A stretch of DNA of 64,000 bases from an uncultured Rhodospirillaceae bacterium (lineage in GTDB: Bacteria > Pseudomonadota > Alphaproteobacteria > UBA6615): the NCBI GenBank assembly GCA_964530225.1, contig CAZHBA010000104.1, forward strand, positions 15,178-79,177, written 5' to 3'. The position numbers and the translations under genes are program-made. This document shows, one piece after another, positions 37,922 through 54,628 of this stretch. The stretch's first letter is position 1, and every line of letters begins with the position of its first letter. The notes below the pieces were generated by a model. It searched no databases, was not told the origin of the DNA, and was given only the letters and a program-made list of their open reading frames with translations.

Positions 37922-39421
37922 CTACGTCCTGGCACCGGTGTTGCCTAATGCAGCAGCCTCCACCCGATCCTCTGTCGCCAGCTGAAATCCCGCCCGAAGA
38001 AAACTGCTCCGGGATGCTTGGTTTTCCGGGTGGATGTCGGCCCACATCGCTTCCTCCCTCAGCAGGCGCCGCAAAGCGCGCAGCACCGCCGTACCCGTTC
38101 CTTGCCCCTGCTCGGAACCAGAGACGAGGATGGAAACCTCCCTAGGCGCCTCCCCTGACAGCGGGTCATTCCGGTCGACGCGCACCAGTCCAATGGGGAG
38201 TCCATTGGCCTCTATGATCTCACAAATGCCGAAGGGGTCGGCCAGGCGCGCTTCGCACCAGGCACGATGTGCTACGGGATCGGGCGCTGCCGGATTGCGG
38301 AAGAACCGCCGTATCCTCGGCTCTCTTTGCCAAGACAACAACGCCTCAGCATCCTCCACCCGGAAGCGCCGTAGTGTCACCGCTCTTCCTGCGCGGTCCT
38401 TTTCCGGCCGCGCTGCAAGAACAACTCTACGCGCGCCCAGCCCATCCACCAATGCGGCCCCCCGCCGCCACATGGAGTCACGCGCCGTCACATCTTCGAG
38501 CAACTCATCAAGAGCCTGCCGGGTGGCCTCAAAAATTTCTTCCGGCCCGTGCGAACGGGCATCGATTGGCAGAACACAGCCCTGCGCCGCCAGCCCCTCG
38601 ACCGTCCCACACTGGTTGTCGGCGACAACGGCGGCCAGCGATGGCAGGCCGAGACAGAGCTTTTCCTGTAGTGTAATCCCCCCGGGACCAACCGAACAAT
38701 CCGCGTCACCGAACAACTGGTCGATGTCCAGCATGTCGCGGTGACAGCGGATTCGGTCCGGTACCGAGACTGCAAGGTCCTCGACCGCTTGCCAGGATGC
38801 GGCTTGCCCGCCGAGCACCAATTCAATATTGCAATTCTCCGCCTCCCGAGATGCGAGAACCGCCCTCAAAAAGATCGGAGCAAGCCCACGGCCGTCGAGC
38901 CCCCCGGCTGTCACCAACATAGTTTTCGCGCGCGCACCGCGCCTTTCCCTGTTACGTAGCACCGCCGGGCGACGCTGGCGTATAGCTGCGCGCAGCGGCG
39001 CAAAGGTCGGGCCGAGCAAAAGCCGCGCGCTGGATGCCACAGCCTCTGAATAGGATTCCGGGCGCGCGTTGGGGGCTACATTGACGACAAGGCCACCAGC
39101 GAACTCGCAATCACCCAAATCGTCTAACACAACGGTAACGCGCGCGCCTTGCCCAATCGCCTGTATTTGGTCGCAGTCGGCAGCGTAGCTGTCGATGACG
39201 GCGACATCGCAACTGCCTTGCGCATCAGCAGACGATGGTGAAATTGGATACCGGCCTGGCGCCATCCAGCCTAACGCCTCCTGCCCCGCCTGCCCGGTCA
39301 CGAAAACCGGCCGCAGCCCGTCCTCCTCAAACGCTTCCGCCAGGGCAAGGCAGCGCGCAACATGGCCCAACCCGACACCCGGTCCCGCTTCGCAGAAAAG
39401 TCTCGCCTCGTCAGCGCTCAT
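37922..39421 (-). CDS. PseG-like UDP-2,4-diacetamido-2,4,6-trideoxy-beta-L-altropyranose hydrolase fused to a C-terminal GNAT N-acetyltransferase domain
   Basis: N-terminal ~330 aa MurG-like GT-B fold beginning …EAGPGVGLGHVARCLALAEAF (PseG glycine-rich start). C-terminal ~160 aa GNAT fold (…VRVDRND…EVSILVSGSEQGQGTGTAVLRAL…). 499 aa. Confidence 0.65.
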   Translation of the reverse strand: MSADEARLFCEAGPGVGLGHVARCLALAEAFEEDGLRPVFVTGQAGQEALGWMAPGRYPISPSSADAQGSCDVAVIDSYAADCDQIQAIGQGARVTVVLDDLGDCEFAGGLVVNVAPNARPESYSEAVASSARLLLGPTFAPLRAAIRQRRPAVLRNRERRGARAKTMLVTAGGLDGRGLAPIFLRAVLASREAENCNIELVLGGQAASWQAVEDLAVSVPDRIRCHRDMLDIDQLFGDADCSVGPGGITLQEKLCLGLPSLAAVVADNQCGTVEGLAAQGCVLPIDARSHGPEEIFEATRQALDELLEDVTARDSMWRRGAALVDGLGARRVVLAARPEKDRAGRAVTLRRFRVEDAEALLSWQREPRIRRFFRNPAAPDPVAHRAWCEARLADPFGICEIIEANGLPIGLVRVDRNDPLSGEAPREVSILVSGSEQGQGTGTAVLRALRRLLREEAMWADIHPENQASRSSFLRAGFQLATEDRVEAAALGNTGART

Positions 39422-39953
39422 CGTTTTGTAATAATCCCATGAATATACCGTCCACCCACACGCCGTCGCAGAAAAAATGCGAAGGACGGATCGCCTCCTC
39501 GGTAAAGCCGGCGCGCAGAAAAGCTTTCAGGGAGGCAAAGTTCGGCGCGTAGCAGCCAGCGGTCACTTTGGCGAGGCCGAGCGTGCCGAAACCATAGCGG
39601 CATATGGTGCAGATGGCCGAGGTGCCGATCCCAAGGTCTCGCAGGGTGCTATCGCCGACGAGGATGCCGATGTCGCCGCGGTTATGATGGGGATCGACCT
39701 GCAGCTTTATATTGCCGACATGGCGACCACCCTCCAGCAGGCGAATCGCAAACAGATGCTGGTTGGGCGACCGGTCGCAGGCGTCGACGAAGGATCGTAG
39801 ACCTTCGTGCGTCCAATCGGAAAACCTAGCCTCCAAATAACGCAACACCTCGGGGTCCTGCATCCAGTCAAAATAGGGGCCGTCGCAGATCTCGACCGTA
39901 GCCGGATCGAGCCAGATCTTGCCGTCAGATAACGCACTACGTGTCAATTGCAT
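39411..39953 (-). CDS. GNAT-family N-acetyltransferase (PseH/RimL-like)
   Basis: 180 aa with acetyl-CoA-binding motif A (…IGILVGDSTLRDLGIGTSAI…) and …HVGNIKLQ… beta-strands. Immediately upstream of the PseG-GNAT fusion. Confidence 0.65.
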   Translation of the reverse strand: MQLTRSALSDGKIWLDPATVEICDGPYFDWMQDPEVLRYLEARFSDWTHEGLRSFVDACDRSPNQHLFAIRLLEGGRHVGNIKLQVDPHHNRGDIGILVGDSTLRDLGIGTSAICTICRYGFGTLGLAKVTAGCYAPNFASLKAFLRAGFTEEAIRPSHFFCDGVWVDGIFMGLLQNDER

Positions 39954-40033
39954 GTCTCGGTTTCGTCGCGTCCAAAAACTTTCCAGAAGCGATCCACGGC
40001 TGCTCCGTGAACCGCGATATCGGCACTTCGGAT

Positions 40034-41917
40034 TTAGCCCGGCTCGGTCGCCGCAACCCTTGGGCTTTCCTTTATGAGATTACTAATCAGGGCGGTCAGC
40101 GACCAACGGTGTGCATCTCCAAACACTGGAGCAAGGGCCGTTTCACGTTGCGCTTGGCGGCTCGCCCAGTCCGCCAAGATGGCTTCCCTAGGGCGCGATA
40201 GCCAAGTGCGCAGAGCGGCAAAATGATCCGGATCGGTCTGATCAAAATAACTGGCGCACTCACGAAAAACAGGTACCAAGTCGGATCTGAGGCGCAAATT
40301 TGCGCAAGGGGGATCTAGATAAGCAAAGGGTCTACCGCTCCAGTAGACCCAGCTCAAGGTGCTCGTTGCTCCAAGCGTAACCACCGCGAAGTAATCGGAC
40401 AACAAGAACCGCATGTCCCAGCCCATGGTGTCAATCGTTACATTCGGCAAAGACCGGCAGGCCGTCATGGCGGGATCTTCGTCCAAATAAGCCGACTCAG
40501 GATAGGGCTTGAACACGACCGGGTGCGGTAGCGCTTGAAAAACGTCCCGACACAAGCGCACCTCCGTAAGAGAGGCTTGCCGATCGTCGCGATAGCCTGC
40601 ACCTGAAAATATTCCTCCTACTCGGGTATGGCATTGCGGATAAAGGATCGCCCGAGCGCTATGCAGCAAGCTTCGACGTTCACAGGTTCGGCGGAGGTTG
40701 CGAAACGCGCGCGGCAGTCCAGCATGGATTGCGTGGCCGTCGGGGCGGCGAAAAGGCGAAGCGTTAGACAGCTCGGTTCCACGCTGTGTCAGGCACAGCA
40801 AAACAGGCGTGGTTGCGTTTTCATAGTTTACCTCGTTCTGCGGCTTCTCAACCAGTTCGCGTGTGATGGCATGCTGCACACCAACCAGCGGAATTTCCCG
40901 CTCTTGCAAGGTGTCGGCCAGAGCCAAAAAGGCCGCATCCTTTGGGTAGTTCGTCGTTACCAGTACCGGCCGGCGACCCCATCCCGCCAATTGGGGGGAA
41001 TGCAATAACTCACGGGTTTCCCGGTATAATCGCAGCTGATCGTCTATCAGGCGTAAAAGTTCGGCGCGCAAAGGTGCTAGCGCGAAGGCCGGAACGATTT
41101 CACCCAAGGCCTCACCATATCTGCTCCACACCTTAGCCATGATCGGTTCCGACAGAAGTTCGGTTTCATCTCCAGCGGGAAAGTCTGTAAATCTTGGAAG
41201 TTTGAGGCTCCGAGCCTTGTAAAGACGGAAGGCCAGCGCAACACCGATATCGTTCCCCAACTCCGTCCCATTGATGTTGATGTAGTCACCTCTGAAAAGC
41301 CAGTCTGGCAGACGATCGCCGACAATCTCATACAGGCGGCGCGCAAAATGCCCCACTCCCCGAACCTGCAGACGTTTTAGAAGCGGCTCGGTCTGCGAGC
41401 GTAAAGTCATATGTTCCGGGAGCTGCACCGGAATTTTCATGTGGACGGCCTGCGGATTATCTGCCATCAGCATCATCCAGGGATAACCGATGAAGGCCGC
41501 TAATCGGTCCGCTTCCAACGCGACATCGAGGATTAAACGCGGCTCTTCCCCGTCGCAGTCCTGCAAGAAAGCCGCGCACAGTGCCCGCCTCTGGAAGATC
41601 CAGATGGTTTGCAACGCAATCCGGGCGAACGGCGCCATTGCGCGGTCCGCCTCCAGCATCGCCAAACATGCGGACAGCGTTTCACTTGTGGAGGCGCTAA
41701 ATTTTTCCAAGTCCTCCGGTGTGGCCTTACCTCTCGTATCTAAATAGGAAACGGCGGAATTATCGCTAGCAAGCAATGCGGGAGAGCGGGTAAGGACCGT
41801 CACGTCCTTTGGCAACCCCAGACCGTAGGCTTTCTCCAAGGCCGCTTTGCTTGAACAAAAGACAGCCCCTGTCTTGTCCGAGCATAACCTGGCGAAGGAA
41901 TCGGTCGCTGTGGTCAA
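40034..41917 (-). CDS. Large hypothetical protein with TagF / capsule-synthesis (KpsC/KpsS-like) GT-B-type C-terminal region
   Basis: 627 aa. The C-terminal region (…PHPVVFKPYPESAYL…NVTIDT…DMRFLLSDYFAVVTLGATSTLSWVYWSGRPFAYLDPP) resembles the KPHP / SS…F…P part of the CDP-glycerol glycerophosphotransferase and Capsule_synth families. Assignment is tentative. Confidence 0.4.
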   Translation of the reverse strand: MTTATDSFARLCSDKTGAVFCSSKAALEKAYGLGLPKDVTVLTRSPALLASDNSAVSYLDTRGKATPEDLEKFSASTSETLSACLAMLEADRAMAPFARIALQTIWIFQRRALCAAFLQDCDGEEPRLILDVALEADRLAAFIGYPWMMLMADNPQAVHMKIPVQLPEHMTLRSQTEPLLKRLQVRGVGHFARRLYEIVGDRLPDWLFRGDYININGTELGNDIGVALAFRLYKARSLKLPRFTDFPAGDETELLSEPIMAKVWSRYGEALGEIVPAFALAPLRAELLRLIDDQLRLYRETRELLHSPQLAGWGRRPVLVTTNYPKDAAFLALADTLQEREIPLVGVQHAITRELVEKPQNEVNYENATTPVLLCLTQRGTELSNASPFRRPDGHAIHAGLPRAFRNLRRTCERRSLLHSARAILYPQCHTRVGGIFSGAGYRDDRQASLTEVRLCRDVFQALPHPVVFKPYPESAYLDEDPAMTACRSLPNVTIDTMGWDMRFLLSDYFAVVTLGATSTLSWVYWSGRPFAYLDPPCANLRLRSDLVPVFRECASYFDQTDPDHFAALRTWLSRPREAILADWASRQAQRETALAPVFGDAHRWSLTALISNLIKESPRVAATEPG

Positions 41918-42028
41918 GTTCGTAATTCGAAAGTTTGCATTAAGCGGATCATGCGTCAGGCGGCCGATCGTCAGCCATTACAAACAAGTTGACACGCCGG
42001 CATACAGCTTCATCCTCGAGCGTCACGA

Positions 42029-43069
42029 TCAGACCCGCAACAGCGTCTTGTAGGGAAGTACGGTATGGCCCGCGACGGGCGATGCCGCGCTTGTGGTATT
42101 GCCCTTGGCAAGCGCTATCATATTCTCAAACAACGGGACTCCCGCGGCGACCGTCACCGCGGCACTGCCACTGGGCCGCGGATTAATCTCGAGAATACGA
42201 GGATGACCGGCTTGATCGTACATAATGTCGCAATCGTAGAGCCACGACAGGGAAAAGGCGCGGACCAGGTTGGTCCCCAGCTCCTGCAATTCGGGCTCAT
42301 CGACGAAGATATGGCCCTCGTTTGGCAACTGCGAATTTGCCCGCCGTCGTGGCACGACATGCACGGGCTCTCCCTGCCACGCCAGCATGTCGATGTCGAA
42401 TACCGGCTCTGATAGACGCTCCATCGCAATCAGCGGGAACGCGAACTCTGTTTGGCCGGCGCATAACTCCTTGAAGGCCATCTCGCTCAAATGAGTTTCG
42501 CGTCCATTGTATTCATCAGGCAATGAGGCCGTACCTTCCGTGTTGCCGATGACGAACACATCCCGTCCACCGCGGCCGGTCGCGGGCTTTACGACGCAGG
42601 CACCTGCCAACGCCATTACTTCACCAACCGCCGAGACTAAAGCCTGGAGATTCTCTACCTTGCGCCAGAGGGGTACAGGGATACCCTTCTCCGCCAAAAC
42701 CTCATAACAACGCGTCTTGTCGGAAAAAACGTCGAGGGTTGCGTGATCCACACACGCCAGCGTGCAGCCGGCATCGGCGATATCCTCGCGCCTGGCGCTG
42801 AGGCTCAACGCTTCTTCATCCGAACAAGGCACCAACAAATCTACCTTCGTCTGCCTCAGGATGGCCAGAACGGCGTCCGCGTAGCCCGGATCTTTGCCAT
42901 GAGGTATCGTCCAGAATCCATCCGCCAGATAGCGCGAGATATTTCCGTCGCCGGCATCAATCGCCAAAACTCGGGGCGCATGGTTTGGCGATGCCTTTAG
43001 CTGGGTTATGAGGAAGGGAATCATCTCCCCACCCGCCGACGTAAGCATGATCGTGAAGGCCACCGTCAA
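42029..43069 (-). CDS. ATP-grasp domain ligase
   Basis: CPSase-L-chain-like ATP-grasp pattern (…ACVVKPATGRGGRDVFVI…EFAFPLIAMERL…LEINPRPSGSAAV…). 346 aa. Confidence 0.65.
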   Translation of the reverse strand: MTVAFTIMLTSAGGEMIPFLITQLKASPNHAPRVLAIDAGDGNISRYLADGFWTIPHGKDPGYADAVLAILRQTKVDLLVPCSDEEALSLSARREDIADAGCTLACVDHATLDVFSDKTRCYEVLAEKGIPVPLWRKVENLQALVSAVGEVMALAGACVVKPATGRGGRDVFVIGNTEGTASLPDEYNGRETHLSEMAFKELCAGQTEFAFPLIAMERLSEPVFDIDMLAWQGEPVHVVPRRRANSQLPNEGHIFVDEPELQELGTNLVRAFSLSWLYDCDIMYDQAGHPRILEINPRPSGSAAVTVAAGVPLFENMIALAKGNTTSAASPVAGHTVLPYKTLLRV

Positions 43070-44058
43070 TCCTCAATGCTCGACGGCGTTATCGGCTCAT
43101 CGGCTTCAATGTCGACAAGCGCACGCCGTCCGAGAACCGCTTTATACTGATCTGCGGCTATTCCACGGCGATCCGGAAGAGGCCGCTTCACGGCCATGTT
43201 TTCGACGCTCAGTGGCGTTCCAGCAGGAATCGGCTCGTTCGCCACGACGCAACGCAGATAGCGCTCTCGCGCCTGACGCAAATCACCTGTCAGTGGTTTA
43301 CCTGCTACGCCCAATATCAGCTGCGTGCGGCGAATCGAATCGACCATTTGCGCAAACTGTTGCGGGCCCAGCGATATAGGGTGATCGAATCCGGCGCGCG
43401 ACGGGTCCAGTGTGAGGTGCTTTTCGATACACATCGCACCAGCAGCCACGGCCATCGACGCTACATCCGTACCCAGAGAATGGTCGGAAAATCCGCACGG
43501 CACGCCGAACCGTTCCGCCATCCAACCAATGGCCCGCAGGTTTATGCTGTCTTCCGGCACGGGATAGATCGAGGTGCATTGCAGCAGGATAGCGGGGGCC
43601 TGTCCGGCAACGGCTACCAAGGCCGCACCGATCTCGGTTCCATCGGACATGCCCGTGGACAAAATGATCGGGCGACCCGTCGCAGCGGCCTGCTGGATAA
43701 GCGCCGTATGGGTCAGCAGCCCAGAGCTTATCTTATGCGCTACGGGCTCCAACCGGTTGATCCATTCTAGCGTCTCAAAATCGCCAACCGTCGTAAAACA
43801 TGCTATGCCGCACGTGCGCGCATAGGCAAAGACTTCAGCAGTCTGTTCCTGGTTCAGACAGGCTTGCGAAAAGATGGCGTGGCTCTCTGTTCCACGCACA
43901 TAATTCTTGTCGGGATCGATCGTCTGCAGCTTCACTGCATCCGCGCCCGCCGCCATGGCGACATCGATCATACGCACGCAGGTCTCGACGCTACCTTCAT
44001 GGTTGATGCCGATTTCGGCGATAACGAACACCTCCCCAGCAGGCGGCGGAAAAATCAT
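43066..44058 (-). CDS. NeuB-family nonulosonic acid synthase (PseI-like pseudaminic acid synthase)
   Basis: VIAEIGINHEGS motif, …ILSTGMSD…, …LLQCTSIYP…, …GFSDHSLG… and a C-terminal SAF/antifreeze-like domain. 330 aa; ATGA overlap with the ATP-grasp gene. Confidence 0.8.
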   Translation of the reverse strand: MIFPPPAGEVFVIAEIGINHEGSVETCVRMIDVAMAAGADAVKLQTIDPDKNYVRGTESHAIFSQACLNQEQTAEVFAYARTCGIACFTTVGDFETLEWINRLEPVAHKISSGLLTHTALIQQAAATGRPIILSTGMSDGTEIGAALVAVAGQAPAILLQCTSIYPVPEDSINLRAIGWMAERFGVPCGFSDHSLGTDVASMAVAAGAMCIEKHLTLDPSRAGFDHPISLGPQQFAQMVDSIRRTQLILGVAGKPLTGDLRQARERYLRCVVANEPIPAGTPLSVENMAVKRPLPDRRGIAADQYKAVLGRRALVDIEADEPITPSSIED

Positions 44059-44094
44059 GTTGGGTTCCTTGGCAATGACAGCTTACCGGTAATG

Positions 44095-44823
44095 TCAGGC
44101 CAGTGAGGCCCGTACGAGCGAGAAAGCCTCGCCATGGCGAAAGCCATGCGTGGCACCGCGTAACTGCGCCAGGGAAAGCACATTTGCTTGGGAGCGCGGG
44201 TGCGGCGGCGCCCGTAATTCTTTTTCATAAACGCTCAGCGCAGCGACCTTGCGATCAATCTGTGCGTCGATATCGATTACGATGTTGAAGGGAGTGTCGC
44301 TGTCAGAATCGAACCCCCACTCGGTACTGGAGGGGACCTCGAAAGCAAGGATTGCAGCAACGCTCTGGCCCGGCAACGGACGAGCGGCCGTTCGAACTAC
44401 CCGTGCCGCGATCCGGTGATCGACATTGAGGTCGGCAAGACTATGCGTATAGATCAAATTATACTTTTTGGATCCAAGTGCGGTCTCAACAGATTGAACA
44501 ACATCAAGCAAAGGTACGCTGTCCATACGATTGTCCGGGAAGTTCAGGAAGTGCGGTGGCTGGGCCCCCAAAATTTCTGCCGCAACGATGGCGGCTTGCG
44601 ATCTCTCTTCTATATCCGAGGATTTGGTTGCACCGCGAGAAGACAAACCATCGGCCAGGAACAAAATATCGACAGTAGCGCCCGCGTCCGCGTGACGTGC
44701 TATCGTACCGCCGCACCCCAAGACCTCGTCGTCGGGATGGGCGGCCACGACTAGCACCGAGGCTGCATTCAGTAGCATGGCACTCTCCACGTTCGGGCAA
44801 TGACCAGCGGGGGCCGTCGCCAA
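44095..44823 (-). CDS. PIG-L/LmbE-family N-deacetylase
   Basis: VLVVAAHPDDEVLGCGGT zinc-binding signature and downstream HxxH (HSLADLNVDH). 242 aa. Confidence 0.75.
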   Translation of the reverse strand: MATAPAGHCPNVESAMLLNAASVLVVAAHPDDEVLGCGGTIARHADAGATVDILFLADGLSSRGATKSSDIEERSQAAIVAAEILGAQPPHFLNFPDNRMDSVPLLDVVQSVETALGSKKYNLIYTHSLADLNVDHRIAARVVRTAARPLPGQSVAAILAFEVPSSTEWGFDSDSDTPFNIVIDIDAQIDRKVAALSVYEKELRAPPHPRSQANVLSLAQLRGATHGFRHGEAFSLVRASLA

Positions 44824-44833
44824 ATAAACTTCA

Positions 44834-46912
44834 TTATGGCCGAACCTGGAATACCGGGCTGACCAGTTTGCAGTTTAGCCGTTCGCGCAGCGTTCCCGTC
44901 CGCATCGCATCTTTGAGTTCAGGAAGGACGCGCGCATAGGCCGCTTCGATCAGTGCAAGCGCCCCGGCGTCATGGGCATAGCTCATATTGTGACTAGCCG
45001 TCAGAAGTACGCCAAGGTTCATCATCTCTTTCAGGAAAAAAGTCTTGATCTCAGCGGCGCTGAAGCCGTCCTGCCCGGTAAACGAAACTAAGACCCAAGG
45101 ATCGATGCCGTTTAGCTGGATTACCTCTTGTAAATTGTTGTCGCGCACCAGGATATTCACACGATTACGCAGTTTAGCGCCTTGGCTCCACAGATGCTCA
45201 ATCACCGGCTCGTCGCGCATCTTTTTCAAAGTTGCCAACCCCGCCGCCAAAGACAAAGTCTCACCGCCAAACGTCGCCGAAAGAAACACCTCGCGCGCTT
45301 CGGCCATGACATCAGCACGCCCAGCGAGGCAGGACAAAGGATGCCCATTAGCCATGCCCTTGCCGAGGACCGTTAGATCCGGCTGGACGCCGTAATAGGT
45401 TTGCGCGCCGCCTAACGCGGTCCGAAATCCGGTGATCGTTTCGTCGAACACCAAAAGACACCCGTGCTTATCGGCTAGTTGGCGCAAATCAGTAAGGTAG
45501 CGATTTCCGGTGTCATAGTCCGGAACCACCGGCTCCAGCATGACGCACGCCACTTTGCCATCTAGCGTCTTTAGGATGTCCTCGATTTCGCAAAGATCGC
45601 CGGAGGCGACCATGTGGGTCAACTCATGGCTTTGCGGAGGAACGCCACGATTGCGCACCGTCGTTCCAATGTACCAGTCCTGCCAACCGTGATAGCCGGT
45701 GACCAGGACATGATCGCCGCCGGTAAAGGCGCGCGCCACGCGCACCGCCCCCGAGGTTGCGTCCGTGCCGTTTTTTCCAAACCTGACACTCTGCGCCGAG
45801 GGGACGAGCTCGGCGATAAGCTCGGCCAATTCGCACTCCAGTTCGCTAGCCAAACTCAGACTAACGCCAGCCTTCATCTGCTGACGCACCGCCGCGTCAA
45901 CATCCGAATCGCAATAGCCGAGGCTAACGGCAAGGAGCGACATCATCAGATCGACATATTCGTTCCCGTCGATGTCCCAGGCCCGGCACCCCATGCCATG
46001 CGACAGAAACAGCGGCGAACGCCCTTCCGGCAGCACCAGGCGTGACTTACTAAAAGTCTGGCTGGCCAGCGGCACTCTTTGGTCGACCTTGCCTATCGCC
46101 ATGTTCGAGCGATCATAGTTACGTTGTGTTTTAGCCCGAGCCTCCAAATCCTCCAGCAAGGCGGCTGGTATTGCATTTCGCGTCCGACCGATTTTATGCG
46201 TTACACCGGCATCGGACAGCCGGTCCTCTTGCGCGGCCACTTCGAGAAAACTCGGCACGTGGTCGGCTAGGAAACATTCAGCAAGCCGGTCGAGAAACTC
46301 GAGATCCTCTGGCGTATCCAGGGTCCAATGTCTGCCGGCGAGCCCCGGCAAGGGACATTCCAGCGTGCGAATTGAAAAGCGGCTTCGGTTCGCCCGTATC
46401 CACCGGGTCACATGTTCGCGGTGCGACGGCAGATCTGCCTCCGTATCTGCCTGGCGCAAAGTTTCGACCCAGAACGCCTCCACATCCAGCCCATCGGGCC
46501 ACGTCCAAGGAGACGTGTTACAGGCATAATCACAGCCCGCGTTAATCAACAACCAGGCGACCTGATCGATCACGGCCGGATCGAGAAAGGGACAGTCGGC
46601 GGTTAGACGGACAATGACATCGGCGTCCTGTGCCTCCGCCGCACCCAACATCCGATGAAGCACGTCGCTCTCCGAACCGCGATAGCAAGAAATCCCAGCC
46701 TGCTCGCACCAATCGGTGATTGCCCTATCACCATCCTGGATCGACGTCGCAACAACCACATCATCACACAGCCGAGATCTTCGCGCTGCCTGGACCACCC
46801 TTGCCAGCACAGGCTGGCCGCTGATCGGCCGAAGCGCTTTTCCCGGCAGCCGACTAGAGCCCATACGGGCCTGAATTACCGCAATCGTTCGATTTCTCGG
46901 CTGCTGGCTCAT
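44834..46912 (-). CDS. Bifunctional protein: N-terminal SpsF/NeuA-like cytidylyltransferase fused to a class-III (GSA-aminomutase-like) PLP aminotransferase
   Basis: N-terminus IAVIQARMGSSRLPGKAL…VVVATS…VIVRLTADCPF (CTP_transf_3). C-terminal half has an aminotransferase class-III pattern (…GTDATSGAVRVARAFTG…LVFDETITGFR…TVLGKGMANGHPLSCL…, Lys in GKGMA). ATG 46912 chosen: ATGA overlap with the upstream Gfo/Idh/MocA gene, while the ORF-track start 46924 is TTG. Confidence 0.65.
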   Translation of the reverse strand: MSQQPRNRTIAVIQARMGSSRLPGKALRPISGQPVLARVVQAARRSRLCDDVVVATSIQDGDRAITDWCEQAGISCYRGSESDVLHRMLGAAEAQDADVIVRLTADCPFLDPAVIDQVAWLLINAGCDYACNTSPWTWPDGLDVEAFWVETLRQADTEADLPSHREHVTRWIRANRSRFSIRTLECPLPGLAGRHWTLDTPEDLEFLDRLAECFLADHVPSFLEVAAQEDRLSDAGVTHKIGRTRNAIPAALLEDLEARAKTQRNYDRSNMAIGKVDQRVPLASQTFSKSRLVLPEGRSPLFLSHGMGCRAWDIDGNEYVDLMMSLLAVSLGYCDSDVDAAVRQQMKAGVSLSLASELECELAELIAELVPSAQSVRFGKNGTDATSGAVRVARAFTGGDHVLVTGYHGWQDWYIGTTVRNRGVPPQSHELTHMVASGDLCEIEDILKTLDGKVACVMLEPVVPDYDTGNRYLTDLRQLADKHGCLLVFDETITGFRTALGGAQTYYGVQPDLTVLGKGMANGHPLSCLAGRADVMAEAREVFLSATFGGETLSLAAGLATLKKMRDEPVIEHLWSQGAKLRNRVNILVRDNNLQEVIQLNGIDPWVLVSFTGQDGFSAAEIKTFFLKEMMNLGVLLTASHNMSYAHDAGALALIEAAYARVLPELKDAMRTGTLRERLNCKLVSPVFQVRP

Positions 46913-47895
46913 CCACTCACCCAAAACCCGCTCAGCGCACGCGCATCTGTAGCCTGGCGCAGCGCGTTGAGGGCTTCCCTGCCGTCACAGGGTGGATTAT
47001 CGCCACCCCGAACGGCGTCGACGAACTGCGTCAGCACGGCCTGGTATTCCTTGTTCGGTTCGAAGGCGTAGCGAGTCTCGGACTGCGGACTTCCAGTCGC
47101 ATCGAAACGCTGGAGATATCCTTGCCGTAGATCCGCAACGATAGCCCCAACCTCGCCAGACACCTCCAGGTATCGACGGCGAACGCGCGACCCAAAATCC
47201 AGATGCAGCGATGAAATACACCCGGCCGCATGCTGTAGAATAACTTCCGCCATGTCTTCTGTTTGAAGCTCCATCACGCCAGTCTTACGCAACACCGCGG
47301 ACACGGCCTCGGCGGGCCCAAGCAAATGGTTGGCAAGATCAATCTCGTGAATCACATCGAGAACCACACCTCCGCCGACGACGTCGTTGGCGTATCCTGT
47401 CCGGTAGTCGCGATCCGCACGCCAATCCGGGAGCCAAGATGCGCTGACAAAACGCGCCCAACGGGGTGGTCCGAGTGCTGCTATCTCGGCGGGCAGCGCC
47501 GCGACAATTTCGCGTTGGCGCAAATTGAAGACGCCGCCAACCTGTAAATGTTGTTTGGTGGCCTGATCCAGAAGGGCCCCCACCGCACCGGGGTCGTGGC
47601 CAATGGGTTTCTCGACCAAGGTCGGAACATCGGCCGACAGACTCAAAGCGAGATCGGCCTGATGCTGGCCGGTGGGTGAAGCCACCAGCGCGATGTCGGC
47701 ATTCTCCAACGCGTCCTGCGCCGTGTTAGCCAATGCCAAGCCCAGACCAGCGGCCTGCTCTCGCGCTACATCGCCCGGGTCATAGCCGACAACAGAAAGA
47801 TCCAGAGCATTAGCGTTTTTGGCATGACGCGACCCTATCGAACCCAAGCCGAGAATGGCGATGCGTTCGACCTTTCTCGGCGGAAACTCGCTCAC
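46909..47895 (-). CDS. Gfo/Idh/MocA-family NAD(P)-dependent oxidoreductase
   Basis: N-terminal Rossmann IAILGLGSIGSRHAKN and …LVEKPIG… motif. 328 aa. Confidence 0.7.
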   Translation of the reverse strand: MSEFPPRKVERIAILGLGSIGSRHAKNANALDLSVVGYDPGDVAREQAAGLGLALANTAQDALENADIALVASPTGQHQADLALSLSADVPTLVEKPIGHDPGAVGALLDQATKQHLQVGGVFNLRQREIVAALPAEIAALGPPRWARFVSASWLPDWRADRDYRTGYANDVVGGGVVLDVIHEIDLANHLLGPAEAVSAVLRKTGVMELQTEDMAEVILQHAAGCISSLHLDFGSRVRRRYLEVSGEVGAIVADLRQGYLQRFDATGSPQSETRYAFEPNKEYQAVLTQFVDAVRGGDNPPCDGREALNALRQATDARALSGFWVSG

Positions 47896-49133
47896 GCGGC
47901 CGTCTCACCAAGTACTTGGACGAGGGCGGCGATCACCCGCTCGATGTCCTCGGCCTGCATGTCCACGAATATCGGCAGCGACAGGACGCGGCAGAAATAG
48001 CTATCGCCACCAGGCAAGTCGGACAGGCCATATCGCTCAACATAATAAGGTTGCCGGTGGACTGGAATATAATGGACCTGGGTGCCAATCCCAGCGTCCC
48101 GCAATGCCGTCATGATCTGTCCCCGTATGGGCGCGAACTCCGGCGTCAGCAGGATCGGATAAAGATGGTAAGAGGGACGGCAGTCGTCGCTCCAACTTAT
48201 CGGCTGAGCGTAAGATTCCAGCGCGCCCATATGCGCGTCATAGGAAGCAGCAAGTGCTCTTCGCTGCTCGATAAATTGGTCCAACCGAGCTAGCTGGCTC
48301 GTGCCCAGCGCACATTGCAGGTCGGTCAGGCGATAGTTGAAACCGATCTCCGACATTTGATAGGCGCCAGCATAGCCTGCACCCAGCCCCAGACCAGCGA
48401 GAAAATCGGGCGCCGACGCACCTTCCTCCCGAACCAAACCATGGTTTCGCAGCCGACGAATGCGTTTCGCAAGGAAACTATCGCGGAGCGCGACCGCCCC
48501 GCCCTCGCCTGTGGCGATCGACTTGACGGGATGAAAAGAAAAACACGCCGCGAGGCTTTCCGTACAGGCTCCGACGGTGACCCAGTCTGACAGCTCAGCG
48601 GCGTAATACTCCGCACCCAACGCGTGGCAGGCGTCTTCGACGATCGTCATTTCAGCCGCACGCGCCACCGGCGCCACGGTGGTCAAATCGACGGTTTGCC
48701 CGTTGAGGTGCACCGGCAGAACCACCGTCGGCCGCAAACCTGGGAAGCGTCGAGGGAGCGTCTCGATACAGGCGGCGAGGTCTTGCTCGCGCATCAGACC
48801 CGTTTTGGGGTCCACATCGCAGAATGCTACCTCGGCGCCGGTCATGCGAACGGCGTTCGCCGTCGCCACAAAGGTCATGGCCGGCACGATCGCCACAGTT
48901 TCTGGACCCAGACCCGCCGCCATAGTGGCCAGATGGAGCGCTGCGGTCCCCGAACCGCAGACGATTATTTCGGCGCCCCCCAACCGCTCGGAAAGCGCCG
49001 CCTCGAAAGCCTCGACCCTAGGGCCTTGGGTCAACCAGTCGGATCGCAGGCAATCTGTAACCGCAGCGATGTCCTCTTCGCTAATCTGTTGGCGGCCGTA
49101 TGAAAGAAACGGTGGTTTTCCGGAGTCCGACAT
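47892..49133 (-). CDS. pseC: DegT/DnrJ/EryC1-family PLP aminotransferase (PseC-like UDP-4-amino-4,6-dideoxy-N-acetyl-beta-L-altrosamine transaminase)
   Basis: …SGTAALHLA…, …FSFHPVKSIATGEGGAVAL… (PLP Lys in HPVKS) and …DWLTQGPRV…. 413 aa, immediately downstream of pseB. Confidence 0.8.
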   Translation of the reverse strand: MSDSGKPPFLSYGRQQISEEDIAAVTDCLRSDWLTQGPRVEAFEAALSERLGGAEIIVCGSGTAALHLATMAAGLGPETVAIVPAMTFVATANAVRMTGAEVAFCDVDPKTGLMREQDLAACIETLPRRFPGLRPTVVLPVHLNGQTVDLTTVAPVARAAEMTIVEDACHALGAEYYAAELSDWVTVGACTESLAACFSFHPVKSIATGEGGAVALRDSFLAKRIRRLRNHGLVREEGASAPDFLAGLGLGAGYAGAYQMSEIGFNYRLTDLQCALGTSQLARLDQFIEQRRALAASYDAHMGALESYAQPISWSDDCRPSYHLYPILLTPEFAPIRGQIMTALRDAGIGTQVHYIPVHRQPYYVERYGLSDLPGGDSYFCRVLSLPIFVDMQAEDIERVIAALVQVLGETAA

Positions 49134-49191
49134 TAATTCGTTAGCCAGCTATTCGGCGCCGATGGGCAGGCGTGCGCAAACTGCGCTGCTG

Positions 49192-50193
49192 TTAGCCAAT
49201 CTCTGACAGTAGTTCGGAGATTTCTTGTTCGTTCAGAAACTGGCTATTGCGGTCACTCGAATAGGTAAAATCCTCCCCAACGGGTGTTGCGTCCGGCAGA
49301 GGATCGCGCGTACGTGACCAGAATACGAAGGAGGGTTCGATGATGTAGCGGTCGTCAAGCTCGACCGTGTTGCGCGCATCATCGCGCGTGATCATGATTT
49401 CGTGCAGCTTCTCGCCGGGGCGAATTCCCACCACGCGCTGCTCCAGATCGGGCGCGATGGCGCGGGCAAGGTCGGGAATATGCACGCTCGGGATTTTTGG
49501 CACGAAAATTTCGCCGCCTCGCATCATGTCAAGAGAGGCCAGTACGAACTGCACACTCTGGTCGAGCGTAATCAAAAAGCGCGTCATGTTCGGATCGGTG
49601 ATCGGCAGATGGTCGTTGCCGTCCTTGACGAGCTTGCAGAAGAAAGGAACGACGCTACCCCGCGAATTTACGACATTACCATAACGCACCACGGAAAACC
49701 GTGTACCGTCGGTTCCGGCGACATTGTTGGCGGCAATAAAGATTTTGTCCGACGCGAGCTTACTTGCGCCATACAGGTTCACCGGGTTTGCGGCCTTATC
49801 CGTCGACAACGCTACGACCTTCTTCACCCCCGCCCTAATCGCGGCCTGCGCCACATTTTCGGCCCCGATCACATTGGTCTGGATACATTCAAAGGGGTTG
49901 TATTCCGCCAGCGGCACATGCTTTAGCGCGGCAGCATGGATGACATAGTCAATCCCGTGCATCGCGGTCACCAGCCGCTCGCGGTCGCGCACATCGCCAA
50001 TGAAAAGCCGGACCTTGCTTCGTGCCGCTGGATTGAGGCCGAGCTCCAACTCATGGTGCTTGTGTTCGTCGCGGCTGAAAACGACCACTCTGGCCGGGTT
50101 GTGCGTTGCCAGTACCTTTTTCAGAAAATTACTCCCGAAAGAGCCCGTGCCACCGGTGATGAGGACAGACGAATTCTGCAAATTCATCGCCAA
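49192..50193 (-). CDS. pseB: UDP-N-acetylglucosamine 4,6-dehydratase (inverting), PseB/FlaA1 family
   Basis: VLITGGTGSFG, …VRDRERL…IHAAALKHVPLAEYNPFECIQTNVIGAENV…ALSTDKAANPVNLYGASKLASDKIF…TRFSVVRYGNVVNSRGSVVPFF…, near-identical in motif order to Campylobacter/Helicobacter PseB. 333 aa. Confidence 0.85.
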   Translation of the reverse strand: MAMNLQNSSVLITGGTGSFGSNFLKKVLATHNPARVVVFSRDEHKHHELELGLNPAARSKVRLFIGDVRDRERLVTAMHGIDYVIHAAALKHVPLAEYNPFECIQTNVIGAENVAQAAIRAGVKKVVALSTDKAANPVNLYGASKLASDKIFIAANNVAGTDGTRFSVVRYGNVVNSRGSVVPFFCKLVKDGNDHLPITDPNMTRFLITLDQSVQFVLASLDMMRGGEIFVPKIPSVHIPDLARAIAPDLEQRVVGIRPGEKLHEIMITRDDARNTVELDDRYIIEPSFVFWSRTRDPLPDATPVGEDFTYSSDRNSQFLNEQEISELLSEIG

Positions 50194-50746: not shown

Positions 50747-51658
50747 TCAGCCCAACGCACAATCAACTAGCCTGTTGTAAACGCCATCCATTTTTTGCTT
50801 TAGGGATGGATCGGCCTTCCCCCAATCAAGCGTGCGATCTTTTTTCGGCTCCCGAATATCGCCCAGAAGGGAATCGGTTTTGGGCCCGAAATTCATACCA
50901 AAAAAATCGCAAATTTTACCGAGATCTGATTTAGCGTCCTGAACAAAGCGATCATAGTCAATTATCAAGTTGAATGTGGCCGCGTCTACCTTGTCATATT
51001 GATGAATGTAAGCAAGGCAGCAACGGTCGATAGGCGTCATAGTTTTCCAGTCGGATTCATATTTCGGCTCCAACCAGAAAGGAAAGTTGAATTTCCTGTC
51101 AGACTTTAGGGGCCATTTTAGCGAGGGGCCAGTGAGCGTGCTGTCGTCAAACCAGCCTTTTATCAAGATCGAGGCCACAACGCTCTCGGGCTGTCGAACA
51201 GTTGCCAGCATTTTCATTTGCGGATAATAGCCGGATAGAGTTCCTGCAAGATGAGTCATTTCAGGAATCTTGAAGGCAATTCGTGACTGTAACGAAGCCT
51301 CCACCAAGTCCCGATGTTTATGAGGTGTACGTTGACGTGCTTCGACGTCCGAAGGCTCTTTCATCGTCAAAATGTGAGTCAAATCCGCTTTATTGAGATT
51401 GAGATTTCTCCCTGCGAGGGCGGGAAGCAAGCAGTCCTCGTACAACGCCGCTTCGAACAGCAATTGCCATTGTTCGCGGGGAAGATCTTCGATCAGGGGA
51501 AGCAATACGTAACACAAAGGGGGTTCGATAAAGATTTCCGTACCGGCGAATGAACCCACAAGCCGGGCCATCATGGTCGTCCCGGTTCTCATCGCACCTG
51601 TCAAAAAAATGGCCTGCGACACCGCTGTGCTCGCTTCGGGAAGAAGGCGAAGTGTCAT
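50747..51658 (-). CDS. Sulfotransferase-family protein
   Basis: 5'-PSB-like PAPS-binding loop IFLTGAMRTGTTMM near the N-terminus. Later …RQPESVVASI… region (3'-PB-like). 303 aa; lower GC than the flanks. Confidence 0.6.
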   Translation of the reverse strand: MTLRLLPEASTAVSQAIFLTGAMRTGTTMMARLVGSFAGTEIFIEPPLCYVLLPLIEDLPREQWQLLFEAALYEDCLLPALAGRNLNLNKADLTHILTMKEPSDVEARQRTPHKHRDLVEASLQSRIAFKIPEMTHLAGTLSGYYPQMKMLATVRQPESVVASILIKGWFDDSTLTGPSLKWPLKSDRKFNFPFWLEPKYESDWKTMTPIDRCCLAYIHQYDKVDAATFNLIIDYDRFVQDAKSDLGKICDFFGMNFGPKTDSLLGDIREPKKDRTLDWGKADPSLKQKMDGVYNRLVDCALG

Positions 51659-51688: not shown

Positions 51689-52876
51689 TCAAACATCACT
51701 GAGTGGCGTATCCTGGAAAAATTTTTGACGTGGCAAATCCCACATCTTGGATTGGGAAAGAATGTCTGTAAACCGCCGGCCGGAATCACCGTCACCAAAT
51801 TCGATGGCGGCGTCGACGCGGTCAGGCAGGGACTGGATGGCCACAAGAATTTCTTCCTTTTTTGCCTCTACGTGAGCAATTGAAGGGCAGAAACTACGAT
51901 TTCTCTGTCGGGTTCCTATGTTGATGCTGGGTACACCAAACACCGGAGCTTCGCGGACACCAGAACTGGAATTTCCAATAATGAAGCGTGCATTTTTCAT
52001 CAGGGTGAGAAAATATTTGAAACGGATAGAGGGATAAAGAACGACATTATCTTTTGCCGCAAATCGCTCGAGTGTTTCAACGAGGGTTTCTGCACCGATA
52101 TCATTGTTAGGCCGTATGGCAATAACATTGCCGCCATGTTCGTCTAGTGCCGATAGGACCTCCTCGAACTGCTGCCCAATATTTCCGGTCTCGGTCGTAA
52201 CCGGATGGAACAACAGAATAGAATAATTCGTGAAGGACAAATCGTAGTGTTGTTGAACCTCCGAAAGCGAGGGCAGGTTTTCACTTTTCATCAGATCGAC
52301 TTCGGGAGAACCAATCACGAAAATGGTTTGTTCTGCTTCACCCAGCTGCAAAATTCTCGTCCGGGAATCCCGATTGGCTACAAAATGAATGTGGGAAAAT
52401 TTGGTCACCGCATGTCGAATTGACTCGTCGATGGTTCCGGAGACTTCGCCACCTTCGATATGCGCCACCCGCGTATTATTCATAGCGCCGGCAATAGCTC
52501 CCGCCAGGGTTTCGACCCGGTCTCCATGAACTACAAGCATGTCCGGTTTCCGCTCATTCAGGTAATGGCTCATGGGGACAATGGTGTTGGCCAGAACGAC
52601 ATCCATTTTTGACGACGTCGATGATTCCTGATTGAAAATCGGGAAGACCACCTTGTGCCCCGATTTATGAATTTCATTTATAGTATAACCGTGGCTCTCC
52701 AGCATGTGCATACCGGTGGCGATAATCTCGATTTCAAAGCTTTCAGTCGCCTCAAGGCTCTCAATCAAGGTTTGCATCTTGCCGTAGTCGGCACGGGTTC
52801 CCGTAAGGAACGCCACTCTCTTTACACGGTCTGGCTGCTCACTAGTCACTGACACAATTCCAGGATAATTGTTCAT
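51689..52876 (-). CDS. neuC: UDP-N-acetylglucosamine 2-epimerase (hydrolysing), NeuC/LegG family (start uncertain: ATG 52942/52876 or GTG 52816)
   Basis: …VAFLTGTRADYGKM…, …VHGDRVETLAGAIAGAMNNTRVAHIEGGEVSG… and …HPVTTE…, the hallmark NeuC (epimerase_2, hydrolysing) motifs. Confidence 0.75.
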   Translation of the reverse strand: MNNYPGIVSVTSEQPDRVKRVAFLTGTRADYGKMQTLIESLEATESFEIEIIATGMHMLESHGYTINEIHKSGHKVVFPIFNQESSTSSKMDVVLANTIVPMSHYLNERKPDMLVVHGDRVETLAGAIAGAMNNTRVAHIEGGEVSGTIDESIRHAVTKFSHIHFVANRDSRTRILQLGEAEQTIFVIGSPEVDLMKSENLPSLSEVQQHYDLSFTNYSILLFHPVTTETGNIGQQFEEVLSALDEHGGNVIAIRPNNDIGAETLVETLERFAAKDNVVLYPSIRFKYFLTLMKNARFIIGNSSSGVREAPVFGVPSINIGTRQRNRSFCPSIAHVEAKKEEILVAIQSLPDRVDAAIEFGDGDSGRRFTDILSQSKMWDLPRQKFFQDTPLSDV

Positions 52877-53891: not shown

Positions 53892-54628
53892 GGGTTCTTG
53901 TCCAGAAACGGAAGTTTTACGTATCCCCCGATCAGCAAGAATTCTCCCAGAGGAAATTCTAGCGGGCCATCGGCATCGAATCCCCAAATGGTGTCAACTA
54001 GAATTGGCAGGGACGGGTTTGCAAATACGAAGTCCTGTTCGAGGCAAGGTAGGGCGCGCAATACGATTACGTTTCCAAAAAGAAAGTGCTTTTGCTTTTT
54101 CTGTTTATTGTAGTTTTCGCGGATCAACTCCGGTTCCGAAAAACGCACATACCCTTCTTCTATCACCCGTTGGTTCATTGCGTGGAGTTGATGCGGGCAA
54201 TCGGTCACAGTCTGCGACGACCCCGCCTGAGAGTCTTTCTTCAAGACCGCAATGCAGTCGGTTATATGCTGCGGCAGTATGAACGGCGACGTCGGCTGAA
54301 GAAAGGCGATGTATTCCGGGATCACCCCCTCGCGGTCCTGTACCGTTTCCAGAAAATCGCGAAACACATCCATGACAGGGGTCATGTCACCGCCCAAGGC
54401 GTCCGGACGACCAATTGTTTCGATTTGCAGTTTCTCGCAATTTTCTCTGATTTCCCTGGAGTCGGTGCTACAAATTATTCGTGTGACGTCAGAACATGCC
54501 TTCGCTGCCAGTACACAGTAATCCATCAACGGCCGGCCAGCGAAAGGATGGATGTTTTTCAACGGGATGCTCTTGGAGCCGCCACGGGCGGGGACAAACC
54601 CCCAACACTCGCCTTTTTTGACATTCAT
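53888..54628 (-). CDS. neuA: N-acylneuraminate cytidylyltransferase (CMP-nonulosonic acid synthetase)
   Basis: GFVPARGGSKSIPLKN… and …IAFLQPTSPF… (CTP_transf_3). 246 aa. Confidence 0.75.
   Translation of the reverse strand: MNVKKGECWGFVPARGGSKSIPLKNIHPFAGRPLMDYCVLAAKACSDVTRIICSTDSREIRENCEKLQIETIGRPDALGGDMTPVMDVFRDFLETVQDREGVIPEYIAFLQPTSPFILPQHITDCIAVLKKDSQAGSSQTVTDCPHQLHAMNQRVIEEGYVRFSEPELIRENYNKQKKQKHFLFGNVIVLRALPCLEQDFVFANPSLPILVDTIWGFDADGPLEFPLGEFLLIGGYVKLPFLDKNP

Follow-up and report, generated by a model that had tools for sequence, protein, structure and literature searches.

A variant pseudaminic acid-type operon of an uncultured marine Rhodospirillaceae bacterium with candidate genes for nonulosonic acid tailoring

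The 64,000-nucleotide window of an uncultured Rhodospirillaceae bacterium analyzed here (assembly GCA_964530225.1, contig CAZHBA010000104.1, positions 15,178 to 79,177) contains an operon that, by the profile matches of its proteins, is of the UDP-linked pseudaminic acid (Pse) type. Five genes at 42029-47895 on the minus strand are the middle of this operon, which extends from 49192 down to 37922. In order of transcription they encode a Gfo/Idh/MocA oxidoreductase, a fusion of an SpsF/FlmC-type cytidylyltransferase with a class-III aminotransferase, a PIG-L deacetylase, a NeuB-like synthase, and an ATP-grasp protein. The combination of an oxidoreductase (Gfo or aldo/keto reductase, AKR), an SpsF-type cytidylyltransferase, and a class-III aminotransferase is referred to below as the trio. 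The trio is an ancient, widespread, and conserved unit, to which PIG-L, ATP-grasp, and a 627-amino-acid (627-aa) protein are a rarer add-on. The reading that we prefer, and hold tentatively, is that the operon makes and tailors a CMP-activated Pse-type nonulosonic acid for a surface polysaccharide, with the trio aminating the sugar and the PIG-L and ATP-grasp proteins (or a GNAT N-acyltransferase) swapping an acyl group.

Nonulosonic acids decorate flagella, capsules, lipopolysaccharides, and S-layers and influence recognition by the immune system, adsorption of phages, and motility. Structures are the main source of what is known about their chemical diversity, and the tailoring enzymes are largely unidentified (PMC5378307). 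The trio occurs in genomes of at least hundreds of species, including Aeromonas, Legionella, Magnetospirillum-type organisms, and Firmicutes, with the haloarchaea represented by one plasmid locus. Solving its reaction would re-annotate thousands of genes labeled "glutamate-1-semialdehyde aminomutase/SpsF" and might reveal a new sugar, and the PIG-L and ATP-grasp pair offers a concrete candidate answer to how the N5-acetyl group inherited from GlcNAc could be exchanged.

Results

The window proteins were profiled with Pfam and NCBIfam equivalog models, to which the NCBI cutoffs were applied (Table 1). PseB and PseC score above their equivalog cutoffs, and the PseG part of the PseG-GNAT fusion falls slightly under its own, with an alignment that covers positions 7-276 of the 280 in the model. 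The synthase has a clear NeuB family domain and stays under the cutoffs of both TIGR03586 (PseI, 228.2 bits versus 340.25) and TIGR03569 (256.3 bits versus 399.65). A first-pass annotation of this DNA, made from the sequence alone, had proposed a link to nonulosonic acids, and these matches within the module sustain it. They do not sustain the Campylobacter Ptm-type legionaminic acid (Leg) route suggested at the same time. This GDP-linked route calls for LegB- and LegC-type enzymes, a PtmE-type NTP-transferase, and a NeuC-type hydrolyzing 2-epimerase within the module. The LegB and LegC models score far below their cutoffs on the PseB and PseC genes (66.6 bits versus 475 for LegB and 196.9 versus 420 for LegC). 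No PtmE-like gene was found in 37922-50193 by the Pfam profile scan, and the NeuC-like gene at 51689-52942 was assigned to a neighboring neuCBA-like set outside the Pse operon. The first-pass annotation had also set spsF/spsG-like pathways apart from nonulosonic acids. SpsF and SpsG are themselves part of the legionaminic acid pathway (PMC7439481), and a resemblance to them does not count against the link. The N-terminal domain of the fusion is not of the NeuA-type PseF family (TIGR03584, 40 bits versus a cutoff of 205.7), and the role of PseF is probably filled by this SpsF/FlmC-type domain. A PseG-GNAT chimera like that of the window is also known as FlmD of A. caviae (PMC7874193).

Every long open reading frame (ORF) between 32.9 and 61.9 kb of the window lies on the minus strand. 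The operon begins with PseB and PseC, continues with the five genes, and ends with the 627-aa protein, a GNAT, and the PseG-GNAT fusion. The domains named in the first-pass annotation (Gfo/Idh/MocA, CTP_transf_3, Aminotran_3, PIG-L, and ATP-grasp) are all present with strong Pfam scores. It had described four ATGA-coupled genes between pseC and the PseI-like synthase; the interval holds five, with the synthase inside it, between PIG-L and ATP-grasp. The tight coupling was borne out, but the only literal ATGA is the overlap of the Gfo stop with the fusion start. The PseC stop and Gfo start overlap as GTGA, the NeuB stop and ATP-grasp start overlap as TTGA, and spacers of 10-55 nt (fusion to PIG-L) and 36 nt (PIG-L to NeuB, containing AAGGAA) separate the remaining genes. 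The longest fusion ORF begins at 46924 and encodes 696 aa. The real start is probably M5 at 46912, because the fusion then overlaps the Gfo stop as ATGA and has the 692 aa of the public gene call. For PIG-L, the public call starts at M16, coordinate 44778. The same DNA recurs in marine metagenome contigs from JGI and, at NCBI, in a 96-kb contig of a metagenome-assembled genome (MAG), and the cluster members include proteins with TARA mesopelagic names.

The distribution of the fusion was assessed with a word-indexed protein search (E <= 1e-10), which matched 7431 proteins. The best 120 of these 7431 are, with few exceptions, full-length proteins of about 50% identity in which the same three Pfam matches occur. 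Among contigs taken from one genome per species, 595 of the 600 pattern matches listed encode a relative, and the total is at least that. The architecture is thus not the uncommon one that it had been taken for at first. The hosts are found in Alphaproteobacteria, Acidobacteriota, Gammaproteobacteria, Betaproteobacteria, Deltaproteobacteria-type lineages, Nitrospirota, Bacteroidota, Chloroflexota, and Firmicutes (Bacillus, Paenibacillus, and Anoxybacteroides). A search of plasmids returned no characterized trio member and gave loci of Halorussus and Shinella as context. The haloarchaeal Halorussus plasmid, a single archaeal locus, carries the trio in split form (Gfo, an SpsF-like "glycosyltransferase family protein," and a class-III aminotransferase) near NeuB, DegT, and SDR genes.

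The neighborhood was compared by tblastn of the window proteins against 80 retained loci and by clustering of the neighboring ORFs, with 74 species genomes evaluable. The genes recur in the order PseB, PseC, oxidoreductase, cytidylyltransferase and aminotransferase (fused or side by side), PseG (with or without a fused GNAT), PIG-L in some loci, and NeuB. The cytidylyltransferase is fused or adjacent to the aminotransferase in 59 of the 74 loci, and an oxidoreductase lies directly upstream of the cytidylyltransferase in 53 (Gfo/Idh/MocA in 31 and AKR in 22). In a further 15 loci a Gfo or AKR is encoded elsewhere within 9 kb, and in 6 neither was detected, so that one or the other accompanies the cytidylyltransferase and aminotransferase in 68/74 species genomes, inside Pse clusters. 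NeuB was found in 63 of these loci, PseC in 61, PseB in 60, and PseG in 54; PIG-L is present in 11/74 and ATP-grasp in 2/74. The trio can also be recognized in published gene maps, both in the group I flagellin glycosylation islands of Aeromonas (pseB-pseC-AKR-pseF-class III aminotransferase-pseG-(pseH)-pseI; PMC7874193) and in the O-antigen locus of L. pneumophila Sg6/Sg12 (PMC3694923).

The Shinella locus (Shinella sp. H4-D48 plasmid p1, NZ_CP093338.1) differs in setting. Its PRK06209-type "GSA aminomutase" is a stand-alone protein, and the genes that accompany it code for an SDR, a DUF4910 protein, a methyltransferase, a glucose-1-P cytidylyltransferase, and a PIG-L deacetylase. It is a non-nonulosonate locus with the same logic of aminotransferase, oxidoreductase, cytidylyltransferase, and deacetylase.

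The cytidylyltransferase domain of the fusion is, by alignment across the catalytic domain, homologous to SpsF/FlmC-type cytidylyltransferases (COG1861/K07257), and the source annotation of one cluster member carries these two identifiers. It is 41% identical over 199 aa (E 2e-37) to Caulobacter FlmC, the equivalent of a CMP-Pse synthetase, whose sequence was obtained by translating the synthetic operon given in the PMC7591256 supplement. It also matches the cytidylyltransferase of PDB 6oew (2.7e-31), and the ARMGSSRLPGK and TADCP motifs can be read in it. FlmC, which has no homology to PseF, is one of six enzymes that together suffice to pseudaminylate flagellin in E. coli (PMC7591256). SpsF has been described merely as a putative cytidylyltransferase, and a B. 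subtilis spsF mutant still makes Leg and has lost its transfer (PMC7439481). A second, NeuA-type cytidylyltransferase occurs in only about 9 of 75 related loci. The homology to FlmC, the spsF genetics, and the fact that this is mostly the sole cytidylyltransferase in related loci lead us to predict that the N-terminal domain is a CMP-nonulosonate synthetase.

Alternatively, the CMP-Pse synthetase in this window could be the PseF-like protein at 58194-58916, with the trio building some other amino compound activated by CMP or CDP. CTP_transf_3 domains outnumber NeuB-family synthases in the window by three to two, the protein at 58194-58916 reaches 125 bits with the PseF model compared with 40 bits for the fusion domain, and the Shinella plasmid pairs a PRK06209-type aminotransferase with a glucose-1-P cytidylyltransferase, an SDR, and a PIG-L protein. 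We nevertheless consider this very unlikely, given that the SpsF-type domain is the only cytidylyltransferase in most related loci, that its homologue FlmC suffices in the Caulobacter reconstitution (PMC7591256), and that the fusion gene is translationally coupled inside the Pse operon.

The C-terminal half of the fusion is, as judged from its profile and motifs, an intact class-III (fold type I) pyridoxal phosphate (PLP) enzyme. The Aminotran_3 match (PF00202) reaches 147.9 bits versus a cutoff of 30.5. The PLP lysine K522 aligns with the LGK lysine of glutamate-1-semialdehyde aminomutase (GSAM), and the DExxTGFR motif is intact in FDETITGFR, which starts at residue 493. The first-pass annotation had let its aminotransferase assignment hang on the fold profile and the PLP lysine, and the C-terminal half keeps both. 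The best PDB match is the GSAM 5hdm (174 bits). After the GSAMs, the next solved relatives are FumI, PctV, D-phenylglycine aminotransferase, and GenB-type C-6' aminotransferases, transaminases that introduce amines at ketone or aldehyde groups of larger molecules. The PDB list also includes racemases and epimerases, namely isoleucine 2-epimerase and a GenB-type 6'-epimerase/aminotransferase. The PRK06209 model NF004856 gives 339.9 bits, under its cutoff of 486. An identity as HemL (GSA 2,1-aminomutase) was rejected, as TIGR00713 gives 228.7 bits versus a cutoff of 527.3, and HemL would be a stand-alone enzyme of about 430 aa in a heme context, whereas this domain is part of a cytidylyltransferase fusion encoded in a sugar operon.

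The Gfo protein shows weak similarity to the iolG and UDP-GlcNAc 3-dehydrogenase models of NCBIfam, its PDB relatives are inositol and sugar dehydrogenases, and its translation contains the GxGxxG, EKP, and GGGxxxDxxxH motifs. Among the PDB matches is 3q2i, which is listed only as "dehydrogenase" and which we take to be a WlbA-type enzyme. In a locus that stands for 34-35 related ones (L057, 3436-4341), an AKR takes the place of Gfo upstream of the cytidylyltransferase. The best NCBIfam match of this AKR is the model of the Caulobacter "bifunctional regulator KidO" (171 bits versus a cutoff of 244), a similarity that hints at a derivation of KidO from a Pse-cluster AKR lineage.

Oxidation followed by transamination on an activated intermediate would be the best reading for the combination of Gfo and the aminotransferase. 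The same pair of enzymes could instead form an epimerization system, in which C4 or C8 would be inverted by redox chemistry, or the amine carbon C5 or C7 by the PLP enzyme, to yield a stereoisomer of Pse rather than a triamino sugar. Several observations point in this direction: AKRs, which are typically reductases, are interchangeable with Gfo at the same position; the class-III-fold matches include the epimerases listed above; Moritella has an SpsF-AKR fusion followed by a dehydrogenase, with no aminotransferase reported there (PMC7371886); and Acinetobacter aci/ela-type modules have been proposed to epimerize CMP-Leg with dehydrogenases (PMC5595891). Inversion of a hydroxyl, however, requires no PLP enzyme, and inversion of an amine requires a free amine, yet PIG-L is found in the minority of loci counted above. 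No structural chemistry ties the trio to a known isomer either, and we regard epimerization as unlikely.

The PIG-L protein scores 88.2 bits with PF02585 versus a cutoff of 28.2, and its translation has the AHPDDE metal-binding motif in VVAAHPDDE. Its score with a BshB1-like model (64.7 bits) is well under the cutoff, and its PDB match is TT1542 (1e-12). In related loci PIG-L usually adjoins NeuB.

The ATP-grasp protein belongs, as far as its sequence and its modeled fold indicate, to the carboxylate-amine ligase family. It matches ATPgrasp_Ter and ATP-grasp_3 in Pfam, its AlphaFold2 (AF2) model has a pLDDT of 92.4, and the best Foldseek hits of this model are 2pn1, the L-amino-acid ligase RizA, PurT/PurK, and biotin carboxylases, with a probability of 1.00 for 2pn1, RizA, and PurT. 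Residues K118, E294, and N296 are invariant in 33 homologues. The protein has 171 detectable homologues, none of them characterized, and every orthologue context examined is the same type of cluster, beside NeuB and PIG-L. One such locus (L089) encodes Gfo, the fusion, a PseG-GNAT fusion, a radical-SAM protein, NeuB, ATP-grasp, and PIG-L, with the last three joined by 4-nt overlaps, and the contigs of P0123 and P0229 resemble it. In another Rhodospirillaceae MAG (L086), the fusion of which is 59% identical to that of the window, the order is PseB, PseC, Gfo, fusion, PIG-L, and NeuB, followed by an IPMS-like synthase, a PhyH-family protein, ATP-grasp, and a 628-aa homologue of the 627-aa protein. 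The first-pass annotation had seen in the deacetylase and the ATP-grasp protein the logic of an N-acyl swap, and the conserved adjacency of NeuB, ATP-grasp, and PIG-L in other clusters lends weight to this idea.

The 627-aa protein is a conserved partner of ATP-grasp. It has only six word-sharing homologues among 5.8 billion clusters, and all six are encoded on contigs with an ATP-grasp orthologue; its identity to the 628-aa protein mentioned above is 29%. It has no match in Pfam or NCBIfam, its AF2 model is unusable (pLDDT 38.5), and a comparison by hhalign with the two putative glycosyltransferase-like paralogues of the window was negative.

Some ATP-grasp orthologues adjoin a 2-hydroxyacid dehydrogenase that resembles glyoxylate/hydroxypyruvate reductase. 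Like the IPMS-like and PhyH proteins, this dehydrogenase would supply small carboxylic acids. Such neighbors are compatible with a reading in which the aminotransferase and oxidoreductase act on the N-acyl substituent or its amino- or hydroxy-acid precursor, attached by a GNAT or by ATP-grasp, and leave the sugar skeleton untouched. The known diversity of Pse and Leg lies mostly in N-acyl groups (acetimidoyl, glyceroyl, and hydroxybutyryl; PMC5378307). The flagellin glycan of A. hydrophila AH-1, a strain in which the presence of the trio is not verified, has a mass of 403 Da, 87 Da over Pse5Ac7Ac, which is compatible with an extra C3H5NO2 (PMC4691044); its odd nominal mass implies an odd nitrogen count, a weak and circumstantial point. 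On the other side, most of the loci compared have the aminotransferase in a fusion with the CMP-synthetase domain or next to it, and the scarcity of ATP-grasp leaves most of them without a separate free-acid ligase. We judge a purely side-chain role of the trio to be quite unlikely.

Table 1. Genes, domains, and catalytic lysine codon of the pseudaminic acid-type operon (window coordinates)
Feature	Position	Strand	Supporting match
PseB, inverting UDP-GlcNAc 4,6-dehydratase, first operon gene	49192..50193	-	TIGR03589 491.9 bits (cutoff 407.75); Polysacc_synt_2 2.5e-102
PseC, DegT-type UDP-4-amino-4,6-dideoxy-AltNAc transaminase	47892..49133	-	TIGR03588 429.4 bits (cutoff 423.5)
Gfo/Idh/MocA NAD(P) oxidoreductase	46909..47895	-	PF01408, PF02894, PF22725; GTG start
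Fusion, SpsF/FlmC-type cytidylyltransferase::class-III aminotransferase (GSAM-like, PRK06209-like)	44834..46912	-	CTP_transf_3 + Aminotran_3
Cytidylyltransferase domain, ~residues 14-222 of 696-aa ORF	46259..46885	-	CTP_transf_3 1.6e-29 at residues 14-184
Class-III aminotransferase domain, ~residues 266-693	44846..46129	-	Aminotran_3 4.6e-43 at residues 304-645
Codon of PLP-binding lysine K522 (LGK, residues 520-522)	45359..45361	-	Motif position; alignment to GSAM
PIG-L/LmbE-family de-N-acetylase	44095..44823	-	PF02585 8.4e-25
NeuB-family nonulosonate synthase (PseI-like) + SAF domain	43066..44058	-	NeuB 8e-65; SAF 8e-15
ATP-grasp carboxylate-amine ligase (PRK12767/ATPgrasp_Ter/PylC-like type)	42029..43069	-	ATPgrasp_Ter 2.4e-19; PylC-like_N
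627-aa protein, no family match	40034..41917	-	Pfam and NCBIfam searched
GNAT N-acyltransferase, PseH/FlmH-like	39411..39953	-	Acetyltransf_3 2.4e-15; 28% identity to Caulobacter FlmH, E 1e-10
PseG (UDP-sugar hydrolase) fused to second PseH-like GNAT	37922..39421	-	TIGR03590 146.7 bits (cutoff 153.55); C-terminal GNAT 3.4e-15, 25% identity to FlmH

The Pse operon lies within a large surface-polysaccharide region, with GT4 glycosyltransferases at 32.9-37.8 kb. A second nonulosonate set at 51689-54628 (minus strand) adjoins the operon. It comprises a NeuC-type hydrolyzing UDP-GlcNAc 2-epimerase that passes its cutoff (407 bits), a NeuB-like synthase that falls slightly short of the NeuB cutoff (363 bits), and a NeuA/PseF-like cytidylyltransferase (53888-54628). 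The GC content of this set is about 50% and that of the Pse operon 57-60%, a difference that suggests that the block was acquired separately. The third CTP_transf_3 cytidylyltransferase (58194-58916, minus strand), for which the PseF cutoff is 205.7 bits, adjoins an ABC exporter at 58923-60776. The proteins encoded at 54669-56033 and 56848-58341 (minus strand), 454 and 497 aa long, are paralogues that share 28% identity. Their only matches are weak ones to models named BFO_1060 glycosyltransferase and "surface carbohydrate biosynthesis protein," and they are candidate nonulosonate transferases. At the head of the polysaccharide region, the protein encoded at 60874-61854 (minus strand) has an RfaH/NusG-like antiterminator domain (about residues 167-322) after an N-terminal extension of about 165 aa without a match.

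A CysN/NodQ-like GTPase fused to an intact APS kinase is encoded at 29329-31125 on the plus strand. Its G1 and G3 motifs read VGHGKST and DAPSH in place of the usual GxxxxGKS and DxPGH, and the GTPase may be degenerate. Together with a sulfotransferase at 50747-51658, the presence of this protein suggests a sulfated glycan.

Discussion

In the reading that we prefer, PseB, PseC, the PseG-GNAT fusion, and the NeuB-like synthase would, by homology, follow the standard route from UDP-GlcNAc to Pse, and the N-terminal domain of the fusion would activate the nonulosonate with CMP. The cytidylyltransferase and aminotransferase are almost always paired with an NAD(P) oxidoreductase, which suggests that the nonulosonate undergoes sequential carbonyl chemistry at or around its activation, and the fusion of the CMP-synthetase domain to an aminotransferase here and to an AKR in Moritella points the same way. 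The Gfo/Idh/MocA protein would oxidize a secondary hydroxyl on the free or the CMP-linked nonulosonate, and the fused class-III aminotransferase would turn the resulting ketone into an amine. Because the hexose C3 hydroxyl goes to the ring-oxygen position and C1 and C5 are unavailable until condensation, only the hydroxyls at C4 and C8 are available. C8, beside the terminal methyl group, would be chemically the most attractive site, with C4 as the alternative. The 8-keto intermediate would be a methyl ketone, a classic substrate type for class-III amine transaminases.

The PIG-L protein would strip an N-acetyl group, most plausibly the GlcNAc-derived one that becomes N5, and the ATP-grasp protein, the spare PseH-like GNAT, or both would re-acylate the free amine with a carboxylic or amino acid. 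Since the N5-acetyl is inherited from UDP-GlcNAc and cannot be varied by the choice of acyl-CoA, a deacetylase followed by a ligase or GNAT is a coherent arrangement for its exchange.

A number of points weigh against this reading. AKRs usually reduce carbonyls, which fits epimerization or reduction as well as oxidation. Cytidylyltransferases are also encoded elsewhere in the window, at 53888-54628 and at 58194-58916, and the fusion domain need therefore not be the only CMP-Pse synthetase here. The fold search with the ATP-grasp model returned generic carboxylate-amine ligases only and allowed no substrate call. In the literature searched, no paper was found that assigns the reaction of the aminotransferase or the oxidoreductase in any Pse cluster, and no natural triamino nonulosonic acid was found. 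Caulobacter, moreover, makes functional CMP-Pse without either enzyme (PMC7591256).

Three comparisons were set aside in the light of the literature. The Sinorhizobium genes rkpN, rkpO, and rkpP do not encode the trio, as RkpN is PseF-type and RkpO is PseG (PMC7591256). A 373-Da glycan of A. caviae is not supported as evidence for a third nitrogen, since it is now given as plain Pse5Ac7Ac (PMC9290775). For the Acinetobacter genes aciA-E, the source gives only SDR identities for AciB and AciE (PMC5595891).

A bolder possibility, which we consider doubtful, is that the trio turns Pse into an undescribed class of nonulosonic acid with a third amino group, such as 8-amino-8-deoxy-Pse, and that in this locus PIG-L and ATP-grasp, perhaps with the 627-aa partner, exchange the N5-acetyl for an amino- or hydroxy-acyl group. 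If true, a large share of the "Pse" clusters of environmental bacteria and of some archaea would make an uncharacterized sugar. The trio of this window, which comes from an uncultured marine bacterium, is an ordinary one, and its value lies in the family rather than in the locus.

Compared with the canonical CMP-Pse5Ac7Ac pathway of Campylobacter jejuni and Helicobacter pylori (PseB, PseC, PseH, PseG, PseI, and PseF), the operon shares PseB, PseC, a PseG-like protein that scores slightly under its cutoff, a NeuB-family synthase, and PseH-like GNATs, all in one operon. It differs in that the cytidylyltransferase is of the SpsF/FlmC type instead of the NeuA/PseF type and is fused to a class-III aminotransferase, that the synthase is under the PseI cutoff, and that Gfo, PIG-L, ATP-grasp, a second GNAT, and the 627-aa protein are extra. 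The two-step logic proposed for Gfo and the aminotransferase resembles that of the WbpB/WbpE-WlbA/WlbC (UDP-GlcNAc3NAcA) and KdnB/KdnA (Kdo8N) pairs, in which a dehydrogenase and an aminotransferase convert a sugar hydroxyl into an amine and the oxidoreductase is of the same superfamily. The known pairs use sugar aminotransferases of the DegT/AAT fold, whereas the partner here is a GSAM-like Aminotran_3 protein and the presumed substrate is a nine-carbon ulosonic acid, and the likeness is a functional analogy only.

The cytidylyltransferase domain resembles FlmC over its whole catalytic domain. FlmC and B. subtilis SpsF both adjoin a PseG/SpsG-type gene, and genetics place both at the step of CMP activation or transfer. 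FlmC is a stand-alone domain of 238 aa, whereas the domain of the window carries a PLP enzyme of about 430 aa at its C terminus and has an oxidoreductase partner. As a precedent for the acyl exchange, the sfmABCDE operon of Shewanella oneidensis likewise has an ATP-grasp carboxylate-amine ligase in a Pse-related modification locus and is needed for a glycan based on mono-N-acetyl Pse with an extra nitrogen-free moiety; its ligase SfmE, however, is an ATP-grasp_4 protein of 412 aa from a different subfamily, and no PIG-L is reported there (PMC3765264). The closest published arrangement is that of the Aeromonas group I islands, which have the same gene content and order in split form, with deacetylase genes in some subgroups (PMC7874193). 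There, an AKR stands in place of Gfo, the genes are unfused, the context is flagellin, and ATP-grasp is absent, whereas the context here is a polysaccharide. This operon is a variant of the known Pse pathway with a common trio, which is not a rare architecture, and with PIG-L, ATP-grasp, and the 627-aa protein as rarer add-ons.

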